The translations under genes were made by a program, and so were the position numbers. Shown piece by piece: positions 13,072-61,893 of a stretch of DNA of 64,000 bases (its first letter is position 1; each line of letters begins with the position of its first letter). Below the pieces are notes generated by a model that was not told the DNA's origin, did no database searches, and saw only the letters and a program-made list of their open reading frames with translations. The stretch spans positions 93,925 to 157,924 of the forward strand of contig JBBSUV010000001.1 in NCBI GenBank assembly GCA_038234075.1, given 5' to 3'. The stretch is from Flavobacteriales bacterium (GTDB lineage Bacteria; Bacteroidota; Bacteroidia; Flavobacteriales_F; PHOS-HE28).

Positions 13072-13836
13072 ATGGCGCAAGAGCTGAAGGAGGCGGGGGA
13101 ATTCCGATACATCGACGCGGGCGAAGGCCCTCCATTGCTGTTCCTGCACGGCCTTTTTGGGGCACTCAGCAACTTCGAGGAGACCATCGCGCATTTCTCC
13201 GGCCGCTACCGGGTGGTGATGCCGATGCTGCCGCTCTACTCCCTACCGATGCTGAACACGAACGTGAAGGCCTTGGCGGAATTCCTGCGGCGTTTCATCC
13301 AGCAGCTCGGCCTTTCGGACATCAACCTGCTGGGCAATTCCTTGGGTGGCCACGTGGCTTTGGTGTATGCCAGCAAGCACCCGGAAACCGTGCGCTCACT
13401 GATCCTCACGGGCAGCAGTGGCCTGTATGAGAACGCTTTCGGCGGCAGCTTCCCGCGCCGCGAGGACAAGGAGTTCATCCGCAAGAAGGTCGCTGTGACC
13501 TTCTATGATCCGGCGTTCGCGACGGACGCATTGGTGGACGAATGCTTCGTAACGGTGAACGACCGCGCGAAGCTGATCCGCATCCTATCGCTTGCCAAGA
13601 GCGCGATCCGCCACAACATGGCAGCGGAACTTCCGAAGCTGAAAATGCCTGTCTGCCTCATCTGGGGCAAACAGGATCAAATAACCCCACCGCACGTAGC
13701 GGAGGAGTTCCATGAAATGATCCCGAAGAGCGATCTGTTCTGGATCGAACACTGCGGCCATGCCGCCATGATGGAACAACCGGCGGAATTCAATTCCATC
13801 CTGGACGGATGGCTCGCGAAGACGTTGAACGCGTAA
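13072..13836 (+). CDS. Alpha/beta-fold hydrolase
   Basis: GNSLGGHVAL nucleophile elbow and LHGLFG oxyanion region. The start was moved to the internal MAQELKEAG because the upstream ORF extension is compositionally non-coding. Confidence 0.75.
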   Translation: MAQELKEAGEFRYIDAGEGPPLLFLHGLFGALSNFEETIAHFSGRYRVVMPMLPLYSLPMLNTNVKALAEFLRRFIQQLGLSDINLLGNSLGGHVALVYASKHPETVRSLILTGSSGLYENAFGGSFPRREDKEFIRKKVAVTFYDPAFATDALVDECFVTVNDRAKLIRILSLAKSAIRHNMAAELPKLKMPVCLIWGKQDQITPPHVAEEFHEMIPKSDLFWIEHCGHAAMMEQPAEFNSILDGWLAKTLNA

Positions 13837-14456
13837 TGGAGAACCTCAAAGCCGAGCATCTCGGCAGCGGTCGCGAGGCAGCGCACTGGCCCAAGCCGAA
13901 CCTGCCTGAGTACGCTTTCATCGGACGAAGCAATGTGGGCAAGAGCTCATTGATCAACATGCTCGTCGGCATCCATCGCCTTGCTCGGGTGAGCACCACA
14001 CCGGGCCGCACGCGCAACGTGGAGCATTTCCGCGTGGAGCCTGTGAAGGGTAAAGGCCAAGCTTGGATGCTGGCTGACCTGCCCGGGTACGGCTTCGCAA
14101 AAACGAGCAAAGCGGAGCGCGCTCTTTGGTTGGAAATGATCCGCACCTACTTGCGTGAGCGCGAGAACCTACAATGTGTCTTCCTGCTCGTCGACGTCCG
14201 TCACGACCCCCAGCAGAACGACCTGGACATGATCCAGTGGCTCGGCGACGAACAGATCTCCTTCGTCATCCTTTTCACCAAAAGCGACAAGCTGAAACAG
14301 CCGTCCATCGTCAGCAATATCGCGCTGTTCAAGAGGACCTTGAAGAAAACCTGGGACACATTGCCGCACCTGATCATCACCTCTTCAGAGGATGGGAAAG
14401 GGCGGGATGAGGTGCTCTCCTTCATCCTGGACGTGAATTCGCGCTGGGGCGCTTAG
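13836..14456 (+). CDS. engB: Ribosome biogenesis GTP-binding protein YihA/EngB
   Basis: GRSNVGKSSLIN G1 motif, EngB family. The start overlaps the hydrolase stop (TAATG). Confidence 0.85.
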   Translation: MENLKAEHLGSGREAAHWPKPNLPEYAFIGRSNVGKSSLINMLVGIHRLARVSTTPGRTRNVEHFRVEPVKGKGQAWMLADLPGYGFAKTSKAERALWLEMIRTYLRERENLQCVFLLVDVRHDPQQNDLDMIQWLGDEQISFVILFTKSDKLKQPSIVSNIALFKRTLKKTWDTLPHLIITSSEDGKGRDEVLSFILDVNSRWGA

Positions 14457-14468
14457 TTGTCAATTTTC

Positions 14469-14623
14469 AGTTGTCCGTTCTTAGTTGTCCGTTGTCATGC
14501 GGGCGCAGAGTCCTTTATTCTTGGCTCGTGCATTTGGCCCCATGGGCCACGGAGCTGCGAAGCCGAAACCTGCGACGGATCGGCCAAGGGCCCTGACAAC
14601 GGACAACTAAGAACGGACAACTA
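14469..14623. repeat. 155-bp element bounded by 29-bp perfect inverted repeats (MITE-like or large hairpin)
   Basis: agttgtccgttcttagttgtccgttgtca at 14469-14497 is the exact reverse complement of 14595-14623. Each arm is two tandem AGTTGTCCGTT units. The 97-bp GC-rich core contains the cccatggg palindrome. The element lies between convergent engB and gldC. Confidence 0.7.
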
Positions 14624-14953
14624 CTTATTCTTCAACTCCGGCAACATGTGCTCGGCGAAGTAGGCCGCGAAATCACGCATCTGCGCCGCCATCTTGTCCT
14701 CGTTGGTGGCCCGCTCGAAGGTGTCGGCCAGTGTCAGGATGTTCTGGTGGAAGAAGGCCTTCATTTCGTCGGTGGTCATATCCTTCGTCCACAGGTCGAT
14801 GCGCATGGTGTTGAGCTCCTCGGCATCCCAAAAGCTGAGCAGCATGGCCTTGCTCACGCCTTGGTTATCCCCGTCCTCGGCCTTCCATTCGATATTCTCG
14901 GGAACGTGGTTCTCATCCATGTGGAGCCGGATGGTGATGTCGGTTTCTTTCAT
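14621..14953 (-). CDS. gldC: Gliding motility protein GldC
   Basis: About 110 aa with LWTKDMTTDEM and ADTFERAT motifs recalled from Flavobacterium GldC. Sits immediately downstream of gldB as in the known gldBC operon. The start was taken at MKETDITIRL. Confidence 0.65.
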   Translation of the reverse strand: MKETDITIRLHMDENHVPENIEWKAEDGDNQGVSKAMLLSFWDAEELNTMRIDLWTKDMTTDEMKAFFHQNILTLADTFERATNEDKMAAQMRDFAAYFAEHMLPELKNK

Positions 14954-15065
14954 GTTCAATGCAGTGAATGGTGGCTGGTGACCGGTGATTGGTGGCGGCT
15001 GGTAATAGGTGGTAAGTGAGAGTGCCGTGCATATCCGATCACCTATCACTAGTCGCCTATCACCA
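14954..15065. repeat. Imperfect inverted repeat of GGTGAT(A/T)GG units in the gldB-gldC spacer
   Basis: ggtgattggtggcggctggtaataggtgg ... cacctatcactagtcgcctatcaccactacc. The motif is related to repeats at 34790-34835. Confidence 0.4.
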
Positions 15066-34737: not shown

Positions 34738-34835
34738 GTTGTCAGTTGTTCGTTGTCGGTTGTCAGGCTGCCGATGGCCGCAGTGGCAGTGCGTAGTCGC
34801 CTAATCACTAATCACCAACTACCTATCACCAAGAA
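34738..34835. repeat. Intergenic GTTGTC-triplet and ATCAC/CTATCACC repeat block
   Basis: gttgtcagttgttcgttgtcggttgtcagg followed by tagtcgcctaatcactaatcaccaactacctatcacc. Shares 11-mer agtcgcctat/a with 15042-15055 and the GTTGTC motif with 14455-14497. Confidence 0.45.
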
Positions 34836-35934: not shown

Positions 35935-36683
35935 TGAGCATCTTGGGAAACCTCTTCGGAAAAGGGCGGCAGGCCATGCCTCCCGTTGACCTTGGGGTGC
36001 TCAAGTGCGATGTGCATTCGCACTTCATCCCGGGTATCGACGATGGCGCACCTACCGTCGAGGCCAGCTTGGAACTGCTCCGGGCCATGCACGACCTCGG
36101 CTACCAGAAGGTGGTCACTACGCCACACAGCATGGCCGACGGTTATAAGAACCCGCCGGAGGTGATCCTGGGAGGCTTGGAGAAAGTGCGGCGTGCGATC
36201 AAGGAGGAAGGTCTGGCGATCGAGATCGACGCAGCTGCGGAATACTACCTGGACCACGACTTCTTGGAAAAGACCAAGACGCAGAAGCTGCTCACCTTCG
36301 GTATCGACATGGTGCTCTTCGAACTGCCTTTCATCAGTGAGCCTTCCATGCTATTAAGCGCCGTGTTCGAGCTGCAGACGCAAGGCTACCGCGCGGTGTT
36401 GGCCCATCCGGAGCGCTACCAGTACTGGTACACCGACATGAGCATGATGGAAAAGCTGAAGGACCGCGGCGTGCTCTTCCAGCTGAACATGATCGCACTC
36501 GCCGGTGCTTACGGGCCCGCCACGAAGAAGGCGGCGGAGAAGATCGTCGACCTGGGCTGGTACGACCTCGTGGGAAGCGATTGCCACAGCATGAAGCACA
36601 TCGAGGCGATCCACGCGGCTCGTACCGAACCCTATCTGCACAAGCTCATCGACAGCGGGAAGCTGCTGAACGCGACGTTGTAG
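35934..36683 (+). CDS. Capsular polysaccharide biosynthesis protein-tyrosine phosphatase, PHP family (CpsB/YwqE-like)
   Basis: CDVHSHFIPGIDDGA PHP-domain metal-binding motif. Confidence 0.75.
   Translation: MSILGNLFGKGRQAMPPVDLGVLKCDVHSHFIPGIDDGAPTVEASLELLRAMHDLGYQKVVTTPHSMADGYKNPPEVILGGLEKVRRAIKEEGLAIEIDAAAEYYLDHDFLEKTKTQKLLTFGIDMVLFELPFISEPSMLLSAVFELQTQGYRAVLAHPERYQYWYTDMSMMEKLKDRGVLFQLNMIALAGAYGPATKKAAEKIVDLGWYDLVGSDCHSMKHIEAIHAARTEPYLHKLIDSGKLLNATL
36597..36683. repeat. 87-bp direct repeat, copy A (3' end of cpsB)
   Basis: About 90% identical to 38017-38103. Confidence 0.8.
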
Positions 36684-37902: not shown

Positions 37903-38016
37903 TACGGCTTTTGTGCGCCTTGGGTTTTGCGGGGCCAAAGACGATGTCCACTGTTAGAAAGCCACAACAGATCGAAACGCAGGGTCCCGAGACGGAGACC
38001 CGGCGCGAGGGAATAG

Positions 38017-38103
38017 CACATCGAGGCGATCCACGCCGCAAGTACCGAACCCTACCTGCACAAGCTGATCGAAAGCGGGAAGTTGCTGAACGCAACGTTG
38101 TAG
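38017..38103. repeat. 87-bp direct repeat, copy B (in-frame remnant of a cpsB-like 3' end)
   Basis: Translates to HIEAIHAASTEPYLHKLIESGKLLNATL*. Differences from copy A are mostly synonymous. A TAG immediately precedes it. Confidence 0.8.
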
Positions 38104-49399: not shown

Positions 49400-50794
49400 A
49401 TGACCTTCACCCTCAGTAAAGCGAACCTGGAAAGGATCCAGGAACACATTGCGCAACAGCGCAACGAGGAGCTCTTGGAGTCGGTAAGGGACATCCACCC
49501 GGCCGACATCGCGGAGATCCTCGACCAGTTAGACCTGAAAGAGGCGCAATACCTCTTTGAGCGGCTGGAGCCACAACTCGCCGCGGAAGTGGTGCTGGAA
49601 GTGCCGGAGGACCGGCGCGACGACCTGCTCGGCAATTACACGGGCAAGGAGATCGCCGAAGAGCTTATCGAGCACTTCGATTCCGATGACGCGGCCGACA
49701 TGATCGCGGAACTCCCTGAGGGAGTCCGCGAAGAACTGCTGGCGAATATCGAGGACAGCGAGCAGCGCAAGGAGATCAACGAACTGCTCACCTACGATGA
49801 GAACACCGCCGGTGGCCTCATGGGCAAAGAGCTGGTGAAGGTGCATGCGGACAGCAGCATGTTGGATTGCGTCCGTGAGCTGCGGGGACACGCTGACCTG
49901 ATCGATGACATTTATGTGATCCTCGTAGTGGACGACCACGAGCGCTTGGTGGGCACGATCGCGCTGAAGGCGTTGCTGACCACTTCGTTGCGCACCCCGG
50001 TGAAGGACGTCTACGACCCCGACGTCATCAGCGTGAAGGCCCATGAGGATGTGGAGGAGGTGAGCCGCATCATGGAGAAATACGACTTGGTGATGCTACC
50101 GGTGACGGACGACCGGGGGAGGCTGCTGGGGCGCATCACCATCGACGACGTGGTGGACAGCATCCGCGATGAGGAGACTGAGGATGCACAGCGCATGGCC
50201 GGTATGGAAGCGCTGGAATACTCCTACAGCCATAGCAGCCTGTGGGACATGGTGAAGAAGCGTTCAGGCTGGTTGATCGTGCTGTTCATCGGTGAGAGCT
50301 TCACGGCCACGGCCATGGGATTCTTCATGGATGAGATCCAGCAGGCGGTGGTACTGGCCCTGTTCGTCCCGTTGATCATTTCCAGTGGCGGCAACACCGG
50401 CTCGCAGGCCAGCACCCTTATCATCAGGGCGTTGGCACTTGGAGATATCACAGTGAAGGAGTGGTGGCGCATATTCCGACGCGAGGCCAGCGTGGGCCTC
50501 ATTCTCGGGGTGACCTTGGCCATCATCGGCTTCGCGCGTGTGGCCGTCTGGAGCCAATTCACGAACCTCTATGGACCGCACTGGCTCTTGGTCGGCTTCA
50601 TTGTTGCCGCGTCCTTGGTCGGCGTAGTGCTATGGGGCAATCTGGTCGGTTCGCTCTTTCCTTTGTTGCTGAAGCGCGTCGGCTTCGACCCCGCCACCTC
50701 ATCGGCACCGTTCGTGGCGACCATGGTGGACGTTACCGGTCTGGTGATCTACTTCAGCATCGCCTCGATGTTCCTAAGACAGATCCTGGCATGA
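49400..50794 (+). CDS. mgtE: Magnesium transporter MgtE
   Basis: N-terminal domain, tandem CBS domains, C-terminal 5-TM MgtE domain. Confidence 0.9.
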   Translation: MTFTLSKANLERIQEHIAQQRNEELLESVRDIHPADIAEILDQLDLKEAQYLFERLEPQLAAEVVLEVPEDRRDDLLGNYTGKEIAEELIEHFDSDDAADMIAELPEGVREELLANIEDSEQRKEINELLTYDENTAGGLMGKELVKVHADSSMLDCVRELRGHADLIDDIYVILVVDDHERLVGTIALKALLTTSLRTPVKDVYDPDVISVKAHEDVEEVSRIMEKYDLVMLPVTDDRGRLLGRITIDDVVDSIRDEETEDAQRMAGMEALEYSYSHSSLWDMVKKRSGWLIVLFIGESFTATAMGFFMDEIQQAVVLALFVPLIISSGGNTGSQASTLIIRALALGDITVKEWWRIFRREASVGLILGVTLAIIGFARVAVWSQFTNLYGPHWLLVGFIVAASLVGVVLWGNLVGSLFPLLLKRVGFDPATSSAPFVATMVDVTGLVIYFSIASMFLRQILA

Positions 50795-51741
50795 AGATCA
50801 ATTTCATCGACACCGTACATCCGGTGCTCAGCACGCGCCTCACCGTGGCGGGCCATACCTGTGAGGACCTGAGCGAACGCACCGGCGATGATTTCTTCGC
50901 GCAACTGCACGACTCGCAAGGGCTGGTGGTACGCAGCAGGGTGCTGGACGCGGCCACCTTGGACCATGCTCCGAAACTGAAGTTCATCGCCCGCTGTGGA
51001 GCGGGCATGGAGAACATCGACCAAGCGTACTGCGCCGAGCGCGGCATCAGCCTCTACAGCTCTCCGGAAGGCAACCGCGGTGCTGTGGCCGAACACGCCG
51101 TGGGCATGCTGCTCGCCTTGATGAACAAGCTGACCAAAGCGGACCGCGAAGTGCGCCAAGGCATCTGGGACCGGAAGACCAATTCCGGCAGTGAACTGGG
51201 CGGCAGCACGGTGGGCATCATCGGCTTCGGTCAGATGGGCACGGCATTCGCACAGCGCCTCCAAGGTTTTGACGTGAAAGTATTGGCGCACGATAAATAC
51301 CGCCATGGCTTTGCCAATGAGCAGGTGGAAGAGGTCGCCTTGGATGAATTGCTGGAGCGCAGTGATGTGATCAGCCTGCACCTACCGCTCACTGCGGAGA
51401 CGGATCACTATGCCAATGCGGGCTTTTTTGAACGCTGTGAAAAGCCGGTCTGGTTCATCAACACCGCCCGTGGCCCGTTGACGGACACCGCCGCCTTGTT
51501 GGACGCCATCGATGCCGGGAAGGTGCACGGCGCCTGCTTGGACGTGCTTGAATACGAGGAGCGCACCTTGCTTGGTCTGAACGCAGAACAACAGAACCCG
51601 GTGCTCAAGCGGCTTGACGCGAATGACAAGGTGCTGCTTTCACCGCACGTGGCGGGCCTTACTGCGGAGAGCTACTTCAAGCTGGCGAACGTGCTGGCGG
51701 ACAAGATCCTGAACGACTTCGCGAACGGGAAGCTCTCGTAG
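50791..51741 (+). CDS. D-isomer-specific 2-hydroxyacid dehydrogenase (phosphoglycerate dehydrogenase-like)
   Basis: NAD-binding GxGxxG (GIIGFGQMG) and catalytic-domain conservation. Start overlaps the mgtE stop (ATGA). Confidence 0.75.
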   Translation: MKINFIDTVHPVLSTRLTVAGHTCEDLSERTGDDFFAQLHDSQGLVVRSRVLDAATLDHAPKLKFIARCGAGMENIDQAYCAERGISLYSSPEGNRGAVAEHAVGMLLALMNKLTKADREVRQGIWDRKTNSGSELGGSTVGIIGFGQMGTAFAQRLQGFDVKVLAHDKYRHGFANEQVEEVALDELLERSDVISLHLPLTAETDHYANAGFFERCEKPVWFINTARGPLTDTAALLDAIDAGKVHGACLDVLEYEERTLLGLNAEQQNPVLKRLDANDKVLLSPHVAGLTAESYFKLANVLADKILNDFANGKLS

Positions 51742-51765
51742 TCCCTTCCGCGGTCCCGGAAAAAC

Positions 51766-51920
51766 AGCTCCCTCAGCGGTCTGCCGAAAGGGACCCTGAG
51801 GCAAACCGGCATCAACGTCCACTGCGTGAAACGTTGATGGAACTAGCTCCCTCAGTGATCTCCCGAAGGGGATCCTGAGGACACGCAAGCATCAACGTCC
51901 ACTGCGTGAGACGTTGATGG
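51766..51920. repeat. Tandem (x2, about 79-bp period) dual-hairpin repeat element
   Basis: Unit 1 is 51766-51840 and unit 2 is 51845-51920. Each unit has hairpin A (ccctcag…ctgagg) and hairpin B (catcaacgt-N12-acgttgatg). Confidence 0.75.
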
Positions 51921-51946
51921 GACACTCTACCTTGGCAGCCACAACG

Positions 51947-52780
51947 ATGCTCAACACCACCCAGGTCCACGGCCACCGCGGTTGCGATGATGCCGTGCCC
52001 GCTAACACCATTCCCGCCTTTCTGCTGGCTGCATCCACCGGATGCCAATGGCTGGAGATGGACGTGGTGATCACCGGCGACGGACAGGTGCTCGTAAGCC
52101 ACGAACCGTGGATGGACCATCACATCTGCCGCGATCCGGAAGGGCGTGTGATGAGCGAGGAAGCAGGTCGTGCGATCAACATCTTCGAGCTTCAACTCAG
52201 CGAGGTGCAGCGCTTTGGATGTGTTCCGGCGAACAGCACGAAAGGTCTTGCAACACAAGCCAGCTGGTATAAGCCCACGCTCTCTGAATTGGTCCGCGCG
52301 GTTGACGCTCATGCGGCTGAACGGAATGCGACTCCTCCTTCTTTCAACATCGAAGTGAAGAGCGAGCCGCAGTTGTACGGCACCTATCAGCCTCCTCCGG
52401 ATCGTTTCGCGGAGCTGGTCCTTCGCGAAGTGATGGCCTTGGATATCGAGCACCGCTGCATCATGCAAAGCTTCGACCCTGCGGTGCTGGAAGCCATGCA
52501 CGCCTTGGCGCCCCATCTGCAACTGGCGCTATTGGTGGACAATGCGGATGGCATCCAAGCGAACCTCGCTCGGTTAAGCTTCACCCCATACTATTACAGT
52601 CCTGCATTTTCCATCGCCGATACGCGCTTGGTCGAGGCACTTCGCGAAAAAGGCATCGGGCTGCTGGTCTGGACGGTGAATGATGAAGCCGATATGCTCC
52701 GGATGCTGGACCTCTGCGTGGACGGCCTCATCACGGACAAGCCGAAGCAAGCGATGGCGTTGATCGCCGAACGTCAGTGA
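51947..52780 (+). CDS. Glycerophosphodiester phosphodiesterase family protein
   Basis: HRG motif near the N-terminus and GDPD family conservation (E…D…H). Upstream alternative starts at 51914/51917 are possible. Confidence 0.75.
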   Translation: MLNTTQVHGHRGCDDAVPANTIPAFLLAASTGCQWLEMDVVITGDGQVLVSHEPWMDHHICRDPEGRVMSEEAGRAINIFELQLSEVQRFGCVPANSTKGLATQASWYKPTLSELVRAVDAHAAERNATPPSFNIEVKSEPQLYGTYQPPPDRFAELVLREVMALDIEHRCIMQSFDPAVLEAMHALAPHLQLALLVDNADGIQANLARLSFTPYYYSPAFSIADTRLVEALREKGIGLLVWTVNDEADMLRMLDLCVDGLITDKPKQAMALIAERQ

Positions 52781-59634: not shown

Positions 59635-61893
59635 TTGCCTACTGCTATGAGAAAAGCCCTTGCCGCTGCCCTATTCCTGGTCTTCGCTACCGCCAACGCC
59701 CAGCAATGGGAGCTCACCACGGCCATCAAGTCGCGCAGCAAATTCCCCGCAGTGCAGATGATGAACGCCACCCTCGGCTACGCACTGGACAACAATGCCG
59801 TACCCGCGATCCTGCGCACACGCGATGGCGGGACCACGTGGGAGCGGATGGTCCACCTCTCGTTCAACTCGCCACAGGACATGTACATGTGGGATGATCA
59901 ACGCGGCATCGTGGTAGGCGGCAGTGGAGGCATCTTCCGCACCACGGATGGCTTCGAGAACACGACCAGCAGCAGTGGCACAAGCACCTACGGCACGCTC
60001 CGCTCCGTCACGTTCGCCAACGATACCTTGGGGCTCATCGGCACCGATGCCGGCCGCATCTATCGCAGCACGAATGGCGGCGTTAGCTGGACACTCATCA
60101 CCAGCGGCGTAGGCAGTAGCTACTCCATCGTTGGGCTCTCCATGCCTTCCGTGGACACGGCCTATGCCAGCGTGTATGGCGTGGGCGTGATCCGCAGCAC
60201 CGATGGCGGCCTCACGTGGCAGCCCACCGCAGCGGCCGCGCCAACCGGCTTACGCGCCCTCCACTTCAGCGATGCGCTCACCGGCGTGGTGGTGGGCAAC
60301 AGCGGCAACATCCATCGCACCAATGATGGCGGTGTCACGTGGGTACAGGCCAGCTCCGGGATCACGCAGAATATTCTTGCGCTCACCGTGCAAGGGAACG
60401 TGATGCTCGCCTCCGGAACCAGCGGGAACATCCTGCGCAGCACCAATGCCGGAGCAACTTGGACAGTGATCACGGTAGGCACCGGCACCACCACCCACCA
60501 GAGCATCTCACTGAGTCCTGAAGGCGTGGGCATCATCGGCACCGATGGTCGCATAAATGGCACGGTGGACTTTGGTGCTACATGGCAACTACTGCGCTTG
60601 GGCACCTACCACACCGTGCTCAACAAAGTGTCCTTCCAGATTGACCTGGTCGGCGTGGCCGTGGGCTCCCTGACCGCCGGCGGCGCGGAAAGTGGCCTGT
60701 TGCGCACCACCGATGGAGGCCACAATTGGAGCAATGCTGGATCAGGCGGTTTGGGCGTTCACCTCCTCCCCAGCGGTGTTGGTTGCTTGGGCGGCGGCAG
60801 TGGCAGTTTCGCCCGCACTACTGACGCCTTCGCAACGCGCATTGCGGCCAACGGTCCCAATGTGGCGATCCGCTGCACATGGAGCTTCAATGCCAACACG
60901 CACATCGTAGCCGGCGGAGCGGTTTATGGAGGCATCTACCGCACCACCAACTCCGGATCCACGTGGACGCATGTCCTTGACGTGGGCAACATCACCATCA
61001 GCGATCTCTGGTTCGTCAACAGCCAACAAGGTTATGCCGTGGGCGAATACGGCGACGACTATCGGACCATGGATGGCGGGCTCACGTGGCAGCCAATGAC
61101 CGCCACCAACGGCGGACATACCATCTTCTTCCTCAACGACACCCTCGGTTGGACCAAGGCCTTCCGCACTATCGACGGTGGCGATACGTGGACCTTCATG
61201 GGCGGCACGCCGCAGGGCACCATGAGCGTTTTCTTCACCGATCCCGACACGGGATACGCCGTAAGCAGTTCTGCGCAAACGGTACGTAGCACCGACGGCG
61301 GCATCACTTGGAACTACTTCTTGCCGGACATCCTTAATGCCCAGATCGGTGATGCCACCTACGTGGACGGCGAGATCGTGGCCGTTGGACGCTGGGGCGA
61401 CATCTACCGTGCGCGCGTGGCGTGCCCGAGCATCGCAGCCATTCCTGTCATTACATCAAGTGGAGAAACCCTCTGCACCAGCACCACCGGAACCGCGCAA
61501 TGGTACCTCAACGGCGATGCGCTTGCTGATGGAGATACGCCCTGCATCGACGCCACAGAGGAAGGTTCTTACACCGTGGTCGTCACCGATGCGCTGAGTT
61601 GTGTTTCGGCAACCTCCGCACCCTTCCAAGTGATCCACACCGTTGTGGCTTCCATGGCTATCGGAACCACGTGCTTGGTGCCCAACCCGGCGAGTGAAAG
61701 GGTCCGGATCGAACGCCTTGGCGACGCCCCAGCCAAGCTCACACTTCGTGATGTCCAAGGGCGCATCGTGCGACACCAAGCCATCACCGGAACGAATGTG
61801 AACCTTGACCTCTCTGGCCTGAAACCCGGAGTGTACTTGGTGCGCATCGCCACCGCAGGCCAAGTGGAAACGTTGCGTTTGGTGAAGGAGTAA
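59635..61893 (+). CDS. T9SS C-terminal-sorting-domain protein with BNR/Ycf48-like beta-propeller repeats
   Basis: Signal peptide, more than 10 repeats of S/TxDGGxTW (BNR-like), C-terminal Por/T9SS CTD (…GVYLVRIATAGQVETLRLVKE). Confidence 0.7.
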   Translation: MPTAMRKALAAALFLVFATANAQQWELTTAIKSRSKFPAVQMMNATLGYALDNNAVPAILRTRDGGTTWERMVHLSFNSPQDMYMWDDQRGIVVGGSGGIFRTTDGFENTTSSSGTSTYGTLRSVTFANDTLGLIGTDAGRIYRSTNGGVSWTLITSGVGSSYSIVGLSMPSVDTAYASVYGVGVIRSTDGGLTWQPTAAAAPTGLRALHFSDALTGVVVGNSGNIHRTNDGGVTWVQASSGITQNILALTVQGNVMLASGTSGNILRSTNAGATWTVITVGTGTTTHQSISLSPEGVGIIGTDGRINGTVDFGATWQLLRLGTYHTVLNKVSFQIDLVGVAVGSLTAGGAESGLLRTTDGGHNWSNAGSGGLGVHLLPSGVGCLGGGSGSFARTTDAFATRIAANGPNVAIRCTWSFNANTHIVAGGAVYGGIYRTTNSGSTWTHVLDVGNITISDLWFVNSQQGYAVGEYGDDYRTMDGGLTWQPMTATNGGHTIFFLNDTLGWTKAFRTIDGGDTWTFMGGTPQGTMSVFFTDPDTGYAVSSSAQTVRSTDGGITWNYFLPDILNAQIGDATYVDGEIVAVGRWGDIYRARVACPSIAAIPVITSSGETLCTSTTGTAQWYLNGDALADGDTPCIDATEEGSYTVVVTDALSCVSATSAPFQVIHTVVASMAIGTTCLVPNPASERVRIERLGDAPAKLTLRDVQGRIVRHQAITGTNVNLDLSGLKPGVYLVRIATAGQVETLRLVKE

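Follow-up and report, generated by a model that had tools for sequence, protein, structure and literature searches.

The closest described counterparts of the element analysed here, an array of hairpins in the DNA of a Flavobacteriales bacterium, are the REP, BIME and RAYT 'REPtron' systems of enterobacteria and Pseudomonas (PMC2817692, PMC3116915, PMC3479197). The likeness extends to extragenic, dispersed, multi-copy imperfect palindromes of ~30 nt, to BIME-2 arrays in which two REP types alternate in orientation and are joined by short conserved linkers, to REPs flanking a single Y1/HUH transposase gene, to bulged hairpins whose stems co-vary with the lineage of the enzyme, and to long vertical persistence at orthologous sites. 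In contrast to classical REPs, which are defined by a conserved GT[AG]G tetranucleotide at the 5' foot, the present element has none, and neither GTAG nor GTGG was found at either hairpin foot of the sequence in the window (the whole 64-kb stretch of DNA that was analysed); the conserved core lies inside the stem, as GTC(C/T)... (A)GAC.

Quentin et al. (2018, PMC6006769) report a Bacteroidetes-specific subclass of TnpA-REP, 2.6 (Bertels group 5), in which GTAG is missing and the flanking DNA forms 'atypical secondary structures'. The present system resembles it in its Bacteroidetes host, in the NH[LIV]H and YIHxNP motifs and length (~180-200 aa) of the enzyme, and in GTAG-less flanking hairpins with copies elsewhere in the genome. 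In a comparison of motifs, as distinct from a phylogeny, the W motif is WQ in subclass 2.6, whereas it is W(R/E) or F(E/Q) in the present clade. The portion of the supplementary REP table of PMC6006769 available to us contains no hairpin matching CATCAACG, CGTTGATG, CCTCAG or the GTC..GAC core.

A superfamily of CGTC-tagged REPs has also been reported from some Bacteroidetes, in many species without a dedicated flanking transposase (Di Nocera et al. 2013, PMC3733652). These are likewise short palindromes with 8-9-bp stems, and the string CGTC is present in one of the two hairpins described below (hairpin B, AACGTCC). The element is not a CGTC-tagged REP, however: here CGTC is base-paired in the stem and variable (GGTC, AGTC), the loop and the apical part are longer, the CCA tail is missing, and relatives possess a dedicated RAYT. 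A literature search with the literal sequence returned primers only, and nothing specific was found on RAYTs or REPINs in Flavobacteria or Cytophagales.

From the comparisons that follow, we consider it very likely that the array in the window is a BIME-like cluster of four REP-type palindromes, belonging to a family of high-GC Flavobacteriales and other Bacteroidota that is accompanied by a RAYT-like Y1/HUH enzyme.

Architecture of the array between the dehydrogenase and GDPD genes

The element occupies a 205-nt spacer between two genes of the + strand. The upstream neighbour encodes a D-isomer-specific 2-hydroxyacid dehydrogenase (50791-51741; Pfam 2-Hacid_dh_C, E = 5e-51), the ATG of which overlaps the stop codon of mgtE. 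The downstream neighbour encodes a glycerophosphodiester phosphodiesterase, GDPD (51947-52780; Pfam GDPD, E = 1.4e-30); homologs of this protein were found, and an exact look-up of the window protein gave no record. A T9SS sorting domain encoded by a neighbouring gene in the window indicates a Bacteroidota host, and the GDPD homologs, which carry names of Flavobacteriales MAG proteins, indicate an uncultured Flavobacteriales-like bacterium of roughly 60% GC. The original prediction had named the two flanking genes correctly and had placed two tandem double-hairpin units between them, which is what we find. TRF detected a tandem repeat at 51766-51920 (period 80, 1.9 copies, 85% matches, score 231), and each unit of this 155-bp array contains two 32-nt hairpins (A, then B). 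All four hairpins fall within the size range of the short (20-40 nt) imperfect palindromes that characterize REP and BIME sequences.

Hairpin A of unit 1 (51770-51801, +), identified by sequence, covariance model and fold as an A-type REP in inverted orientation, has a CCTCAG/CTGAGG outer stem and a GGTC/GACC inner stem. It is followed by hairpin B (51809-51840, +; GCATCAACGTCCACTGCGTGAAACGTTGATGG), a B-type REP with a predicted DNA folding energy of -9.9 kcal/mol (z = -4.5), and by the 8-nt linker aactagct (51841-51848, +), which was delimited by comparison with the arrays at three other loci (L040, L129 and L125), where the linker pattern RRCTWGYW is seen again. In unit 2, hairpin A (51849-51880, +; sequence, covariance model and fold) has the inner stem GATC/GATC, and hairpin B (51889-51920, +; GCATCAACGTCCACTGCGTGAGACGTTGATGG; -11.9 kcal/mol, z = -5.1) is identical to copies in L022 and L044. 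Ahead of the first unit, starting right after the dehydrogenase stop codon, lies the decayed 5' half of a further A-type hairpin (51743-51760, +; tcccttccgcggtcccgg); at this position the orthologous locus L002 has tCCCCTCAGCGGTCccgg, in agreement with the A consensus CCCTCAGCGGTC.

The layout of hairpin A is CCTCAG, a bulge, 4 bp, a bulged T, CCC-loop-GGG, 4 bp and CTGAGG. Its inner stems in the two units, GGTC/GACC and GATC/GATC, differ by a true G-C to A-T replacement on both sides, as originally proposed. In hairpin B, a 10-bp stem (CATCAACGTC/GACGTTGATG) is topped by an apical stem of 3 bp (CAC/GTG) with the loop TGC, and an A bulges out on the 3' side; in the two window copies of its stem (CATCAACGT/ACGTTGATG) the sole difference is gaa versus gag. 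The prediction that hairpin B is conserved with this one change was correct, but the stem has 10 bp rather than 9, and the change affects the C-G stem pair adjoining the bulge, not the loop. Relative to dinucleotide shuffles, the four 32-nt hairpins folded as single-stranded DNA are unusually stable (-8.2 to -11.9 kcal/mol, z = -2.8 to -5.1). The same holds for the complete spacer when it is folded as RNA (z = -4.3 for the + strand, -4.0 for the - strand); none of 200 shuffles equalled its stability.

Comparison of the two hairpins indicates how they are related. The reverse complement of A aligned to B with a score of 7, and A in forward orientation with scores of 3 and -1, against a null of -5.5 +/- 3.2 in which one of 2000 shuffles reached 7. 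Moreover, the fold of reverse-complemented A has the shape of B: the apical stem has 3 bp, the loop is a triloop, and the bulged A is again on the 3' side. In most of the distant REPtrons described below, the upstream REP is similar to hairpin A and the downstream one to hairpin B, and the unit found in Roseivirgaceae is also an inverted pair, with the same CATCAACGT stem and the hairpins 58 nt apart. Judged by alignment and predicted fold, A and B are one REP type in two orientations, A being the inverted one, and the window thus contains four REPs alternating in orientation (A-B-A-B) and joined by short linkers. Two REP types in alternation, with conserved linkers, make up the layout of a BIME; E. 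coli BIME arrays are built from alternately oriented REPs with short linkers (PMC2817692).

REPINs, too, have a repeating unit of two inverted REPs, separated by a few to tens of nucleotides (Bertels and Rainey 2011, PMC3116915). In the present element, by contrast, the reverse complement of A is only about 60% identical to B, A and B are predicted to fold into a hairpin each instead of one long joint hairpin, and the units are arranged head to tail. Since A and B are not mutually complementary, the unit is not a REPIN in the strict sense.

The 23 nt preceding the GDPD start codon (51924-51946, +; ctctaccttggcagccacaacg) lie outside the repeat, as determined from an alignment of orthologous spacers, and are almost invariant among orthologs with 75-91% protein identity; they are probably the GDPD promoter or 5' UTR. 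The Bacteroidota -7 box is TAnnTTTG, and TAccTTGG within this segment resembles it. In the ortholog L001, a TTG is placed 18 nt ahead of this TA by the relic of hairpin B, and in the window the intact hairpin B places it just 11 nt ahead, so that the repeat may alter the GDPD promoter.

Scanning of the element region in the window revealed no sigma-70-type promoter and, on the + strand, no intrinsic terminator (GC-rich hairpin plus U-tract), consistent with the downstream U-tract having been reported absent; one terminator-like site was found on the - strand, where 0.8 per shuffle is expected by chance. These scans bear on one option of the original prediction, namely that the element is a tandemly duplicated, independently transcribed small RNA gene. 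Stable hairpins and a conserved structure agree with such a gene, as does TAaaTTTG, similar to the -7 box, just upstream of hairpin B in Cytophagales copies. However, the latter motif sits inside the repeated unit, the window locus shows neither promoter-like site nor + strand terminator, and the element is multi-copy, forms arrays of up to 4 or more units and overlaps the 3' end of a transposase coding sequence in relatives. A small RNA gene is unsupported by these results and extremely improbable.

Distribution, covariation and persistence of the repeat

Copies in other genomes were collected by a pattern scan (GCATCAACGT-N8-20-ACGTTGATGG) of one genome per species, which returned 40 loci. 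About 24 of these are isolated palindromes in unrelated phyla, without shared inner sequence, their number being of the order expected by chance (~14 by a rough estimate), and ~16 are in Bacteroidota, namely in several Flavobacteriales MAGs, Cryomorpha, an unclassified Bacteroidota MAG, Roseivirgaceae and Cyclobacteriaceae. The Bacteroidota loci contain the full motif with the inner frame CC...(A/T)G, usually have hairpin A just upstream, and frequently carry several copies per locus or per genome, forming a family of paired-hairpin repeats. The MAG MFD09964.bin.1.3 has at least nine units at three loci (L021, L040 and L044), one of which, L040, has at least four A+B units strung head to tail with a period of 79; MAG_25 has three loci, the pattern scan giving L022 and L042. 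All copies are intergenic, and their neighbours are unrelated genes in tandem, convergent or divergent arrangement, some copies being antisense to both. In the Roseivirgaceae MAG (L007: 870-1005, 1620-1655 and 2197-2330) the unit is ~135 nt long with two same-stem hairpins, the spacer between which contains TAaaTTTG, a sequence similar to the Bacteroidota -7 box; small AT-rich ORFs lie between the units, giving the locus the look of a cassette array.

A covariance model of the unit (R1) gave 132 matches in 29 loci, both strands counted. Applied to the 64-kb window with filters off, it recovered the two units only (51849-51920, 98.3 bits; 51770-51840, 81.4 bits), and the next-best match had E = 0.48. 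The repeat is thus dispersed and multi-copy in relatives, with many copies in other Bacteroidota, and is confined to one locus within the 64 kb of the window. BLASTN of the array against plasmid and phage collections yielded no match, and no Rfam family was matched at the E-value and gathering thresholds.

The window contains other repeats as well. Arrays of a GTTGTC(C) heptamer or 11-mer, a second small repeat type, are located at 14456-14496 (+) and 14595-14621 (-), directly after the stops of the convergent ORFs 13809-14456 (+) and 14621-15049 (-), and make up a perfect 29-nt inverted repeat with its arms 96 nt apart. A similar array is present at 34738-34764 (+), preceded by cacagaggcagagggagcacagagg, and another at L027:4471-4490; a related pair, CACAGAGG...CACAGAGG, is found at L022:3869. 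Two 89-nt direct repeats (36595-36683 and 38015-38103), 91% identical and both ending in TAG, seem to be the 3' ends of a pair of paralogous genes separated by 1.4 kb. At 59815-61316 there are periodic repeats of ~32-45 nt, their core being GATGGCGG..CACGTGG, that resemble BNR/Asp-box repeats within a coding region.

The claim that structure is kept across sequence change holds for the family as a whole. Among 21 distinct hairpin B sequences, 98.5% of cells are paired (22-52% in slid controls) and four pairs are changed on both sides, one of them occurring as AU, GC and UA; the covariation score is 0.207, compared with 0.065 in shuffles, none of 500 of which reached it. Among 14 hairpin A sequences, 93.4% of cells are paired and three pairs are changed on both sides, the pair originally singled out being A-U in nine sequences and G-C in three. 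The shuffle counts overstate the significance, because the aligned sequences are related to one another, and the lineage-specific stem swaps around independent RAYT genes (see below) are a stronger argument. The mismatches in hairpin B, about three G-T and two A-C, are uninformative as to RNA or DNA. Both inner-stem variants of hairpin A exist in other genomes (one in L022 and L027, the other in L019 and L040); the difference between units 1 and 2 is therefore a polymorphism of the family and, as far as these sequences indicate, need not be a compensatory event that took place within the window.

Three other interpretations were rejected: a CRISPR-like array, since there are no unique spacers; an integron attC site, since the R''/R' consensus is unmatched; and a palindromic operator for a dimeric regulator, since the hairpins are dispersed and their pairs change identity yet stay complementary.

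The age of the window copy can be judged from five related loci, four with GDPD proteins 91, 83, 75 and 76% identical to that of the window (L001-L004, respectively) and one with the same gene order, obtained from the genome scan (L021). All five carry the element at the orthologous site. In L004 and L021, a single A+B unit precedes a relic of another B hairpin, from its 3' half; the same relic is found in L001 and L003, the contigs of which both break within the element; and L002 has a single unit with a decayed hairpin B. A complete second unit is found in the window alone among the loci compared. The window copy has thus persisted vertically: the insertion is old and its state, in copy number and decay, depends on the lineage. 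The two broken contigs, which are independent short-read (Logan) assemblies, end inside the element at L001:1-40 and L003:1-30, as is usual for a repeat in a short-read assembly graph.

Persistence over such distances could also reflect a function for the host. A cis-regulatory RNA kept by selection, whether a 5' leader, riboswitch or attenuator of GDPD or an intercistronic processing or stabilizing element, would be consistent with the location of the array on the coding strand between two co-oriented genes, with its presence at all five orthologous sites, with its retention in lineages whose GDPDs are 75-91% identical, and with the stability of the spacer as RNA. However, the same hairpins lie beside unrelated genes, both sense and antisense; copies are found downstream, convergent and antisense, and no consistent sense-upstream association with one gene family was seen. 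The number of units varies among orthologs (one, two or relics) and hairpin B is degraded in L002; a tuned gene-specific regulator is not expected when the state of the element varies in this way between orthologous lineages. Nor did Rfam provide a match, and the conserved positions, mostly in stems, form no unpaired core resembling a ligand pocket. The GDPD leader suggested in the original prediction is unsupported on these grounds, and a cis-regulatory RNA of any of these kinds is, in our estimation, quite improbable.

The associated RAYT-like transposase

A search for the HuH...Y motif over the DNA of all collected loci detected a single ORF, at L044:1498-2082. It encodes a protein of 194 aa with NHLH and YIHGNP motifs, whose best NCBIfam match is REP_Tyr_transpos ("REP-associated tyrosine transposase"; E = 7e-15, with 55 bits against a curated cut-off of 80) and which also matches Pfam Y1_Tnp (E = 7e-4, with 20 bits against a cut-off of 23). 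When a profile of this protein and its homologs (27) was compared with the sequences of solved structures, the best match was 4er8, the E. coli TnpA-REP. MPNHxH and QK..Y..NP are invariant across the 27 homologs, and JGI labels several homologs 'REP element-mobilizing transposase RayT'. An HuH motif, a single Tyr in a YxxxNP-type motif and a length of ~150-200 aa, the features of RAYT class 2, are all found in the protein.

In L044, an A+B unit lies upstream of the gene, and hairpin B gives its last codons and stop. Flanking hairpins or repeats were found in all four further homolog contexts examined: A+B arrays to either side of the gene in L125 (66% identity) and L129-131 (71%), a B-type hairpin upstream of the gene and an A-like one at its 3' end in L126-128 (55%), and a different, diverged tandem repeat upstream in L132 (49%). 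In L044, L125, L129-131 and L126-128 the RAYT gene is thus flanked by cognate palindromes, as in a REPtron. The stems differ by lineage and remain paired (CAACGT/ACGTTG, CAAGGT/ACCTTG and CAGGGT/ACCCTG), that is, they co-vary with the lineage of the enzyme. Unlike in the classical REPtron, the RAYT gene of close relatives lies between whole A+B arrays that are in direct orientation and not simply inverted, hairpin B supplies the last codons and stop of the RAYT, and the host phylum is Bacteroidota. The C-terminus and stop are encoded by hairpin B at L044:2063-2092 (...GASTSTV) and at L129:3560-3590 (...GASRSTA), and the C-termini of other homologs, GTSTSTS and GASTSTA, imply the same overlap.

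More distant homologs have weaker counterparts of these hairpins. A regular-expression search for A or B around 80 RAYT homologs from metagenomes (25-47% identity) found none; the covariance model detected weak, structurally similar hairpins at the gene boundaries of several of these homologs. At five of the distant loci inspected (homologs of 31-47% identity), an upstream GTC-T-CCC...GGG-GAC is approximately the reverse complement of a downstream GTC-CCC...GGG-A-GAC. As read from these sequences, inverted hairpins flanking the distant homologs are the classical REPtron layout.

The enzyme also bears on another origin of the array, as a non-autonomous MITE of the IS200/IS605 type in which A and B are left-end and right-end structures mobilized by a genuine IS200 transposase, as opposed to a domesticated RAYT. 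Two unlike, subterminal-like hairpins on one strand, arrays that share the orientation of the gene they flank in close relatives, and the weak match of the enzyme to Pfam Y1_Tnp are features that such a MITE would have. However, the motif around the tyrosine is YIHxNP, which is that of class 2 (RAYT), and not the Y-x3-Q of IS200 (PMC6006769), so that the array is not expected to be an IS200-type MITE. The best NCBIfam model and the best sequence match of the family profile among solved structures are both those of REP-associated enzymes, the reverse complement of A resembles B, as fits an inverted REP pair, and several distant homologs have the inverted REPtron layout. We therefore regard an IS200-type MITE as highly improbable.

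The REP/BIME option of the original prediction, in contrast, is supported by dispersed multi-copy hairpins, head-to-tail arrays and the RAYT-like genes that they flank. The element is repeat DNA, selfish or semi-domesticated, rather than a regulatory RNA specific to one gene.

Proposed mechanism and significance

A BIME-like cluster of this kind would behave as follows. By analogy with E. coli TnpA-REP and with the TnpA of IS200/IS605 (PMC3479197, PMC6006769), the hairpins would form in single-stranded DNA, where the enzyme would recognize their shape (the stem, the 3-bp apical stem and the bulged A) and would cut and rejoin them, leading to spread and homogenization of the repeats; we infer the recognition and cleavage step from the biochemistry of those enzymes. 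If the enzyme requires a shape, pairing would be preserved while the sequence drifts. The copy between the dehydrogenase and GDPD genes is an old, vertically inherited insertion, and the lineage of the window has a complete second unit where its relatives keep a relic.

E. coli REPs stabilize upstream mRNA, and a secondary effect at the RNA level is plausible here too. A putative influence on the mgtE-dehydrogenase-GDPD transcript, by stabilizing it, attenuating it or acting as a barrier to 3' exonuclease, would be secondary to the nature of the element as repeat DNA. It is also conceivable, although we consider it unlikely, that the repeats constitute an undescribed and still active Bacteroidota REP system with a fixed pair of unlike hairpins, no GTAG guide and a stem core (CATCA..GTC / GAC..TGATG) common to Flavobacteriales and Cytophagales, in which the dehydrogenase/GDPD copy, with its full second unit regained, may have been co-opted for operon expression.

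These results remove a false lead: the apparent structured, covarying regulatory RNA is repeat DNA, and recognition of hairpins in single-stranded DNA by a transposase-like enzyme best accounts for the covariation. This is a warning for the discovery of RNA motifs and, because contigs break at these repeats, for metagenome assembly also, such breaks being a practical cause of fragmented MAGs in this lineage. Until now, 'atypical secondary structures' was the only description given of REPs in the Bacteroidota. The REP/RAYT family of uncultured high-GC Flavobacteriales is now documented with coordinates and a covariance model, and may serve as a test case for hairpin recognition by a RAYT without a GTAG foot.
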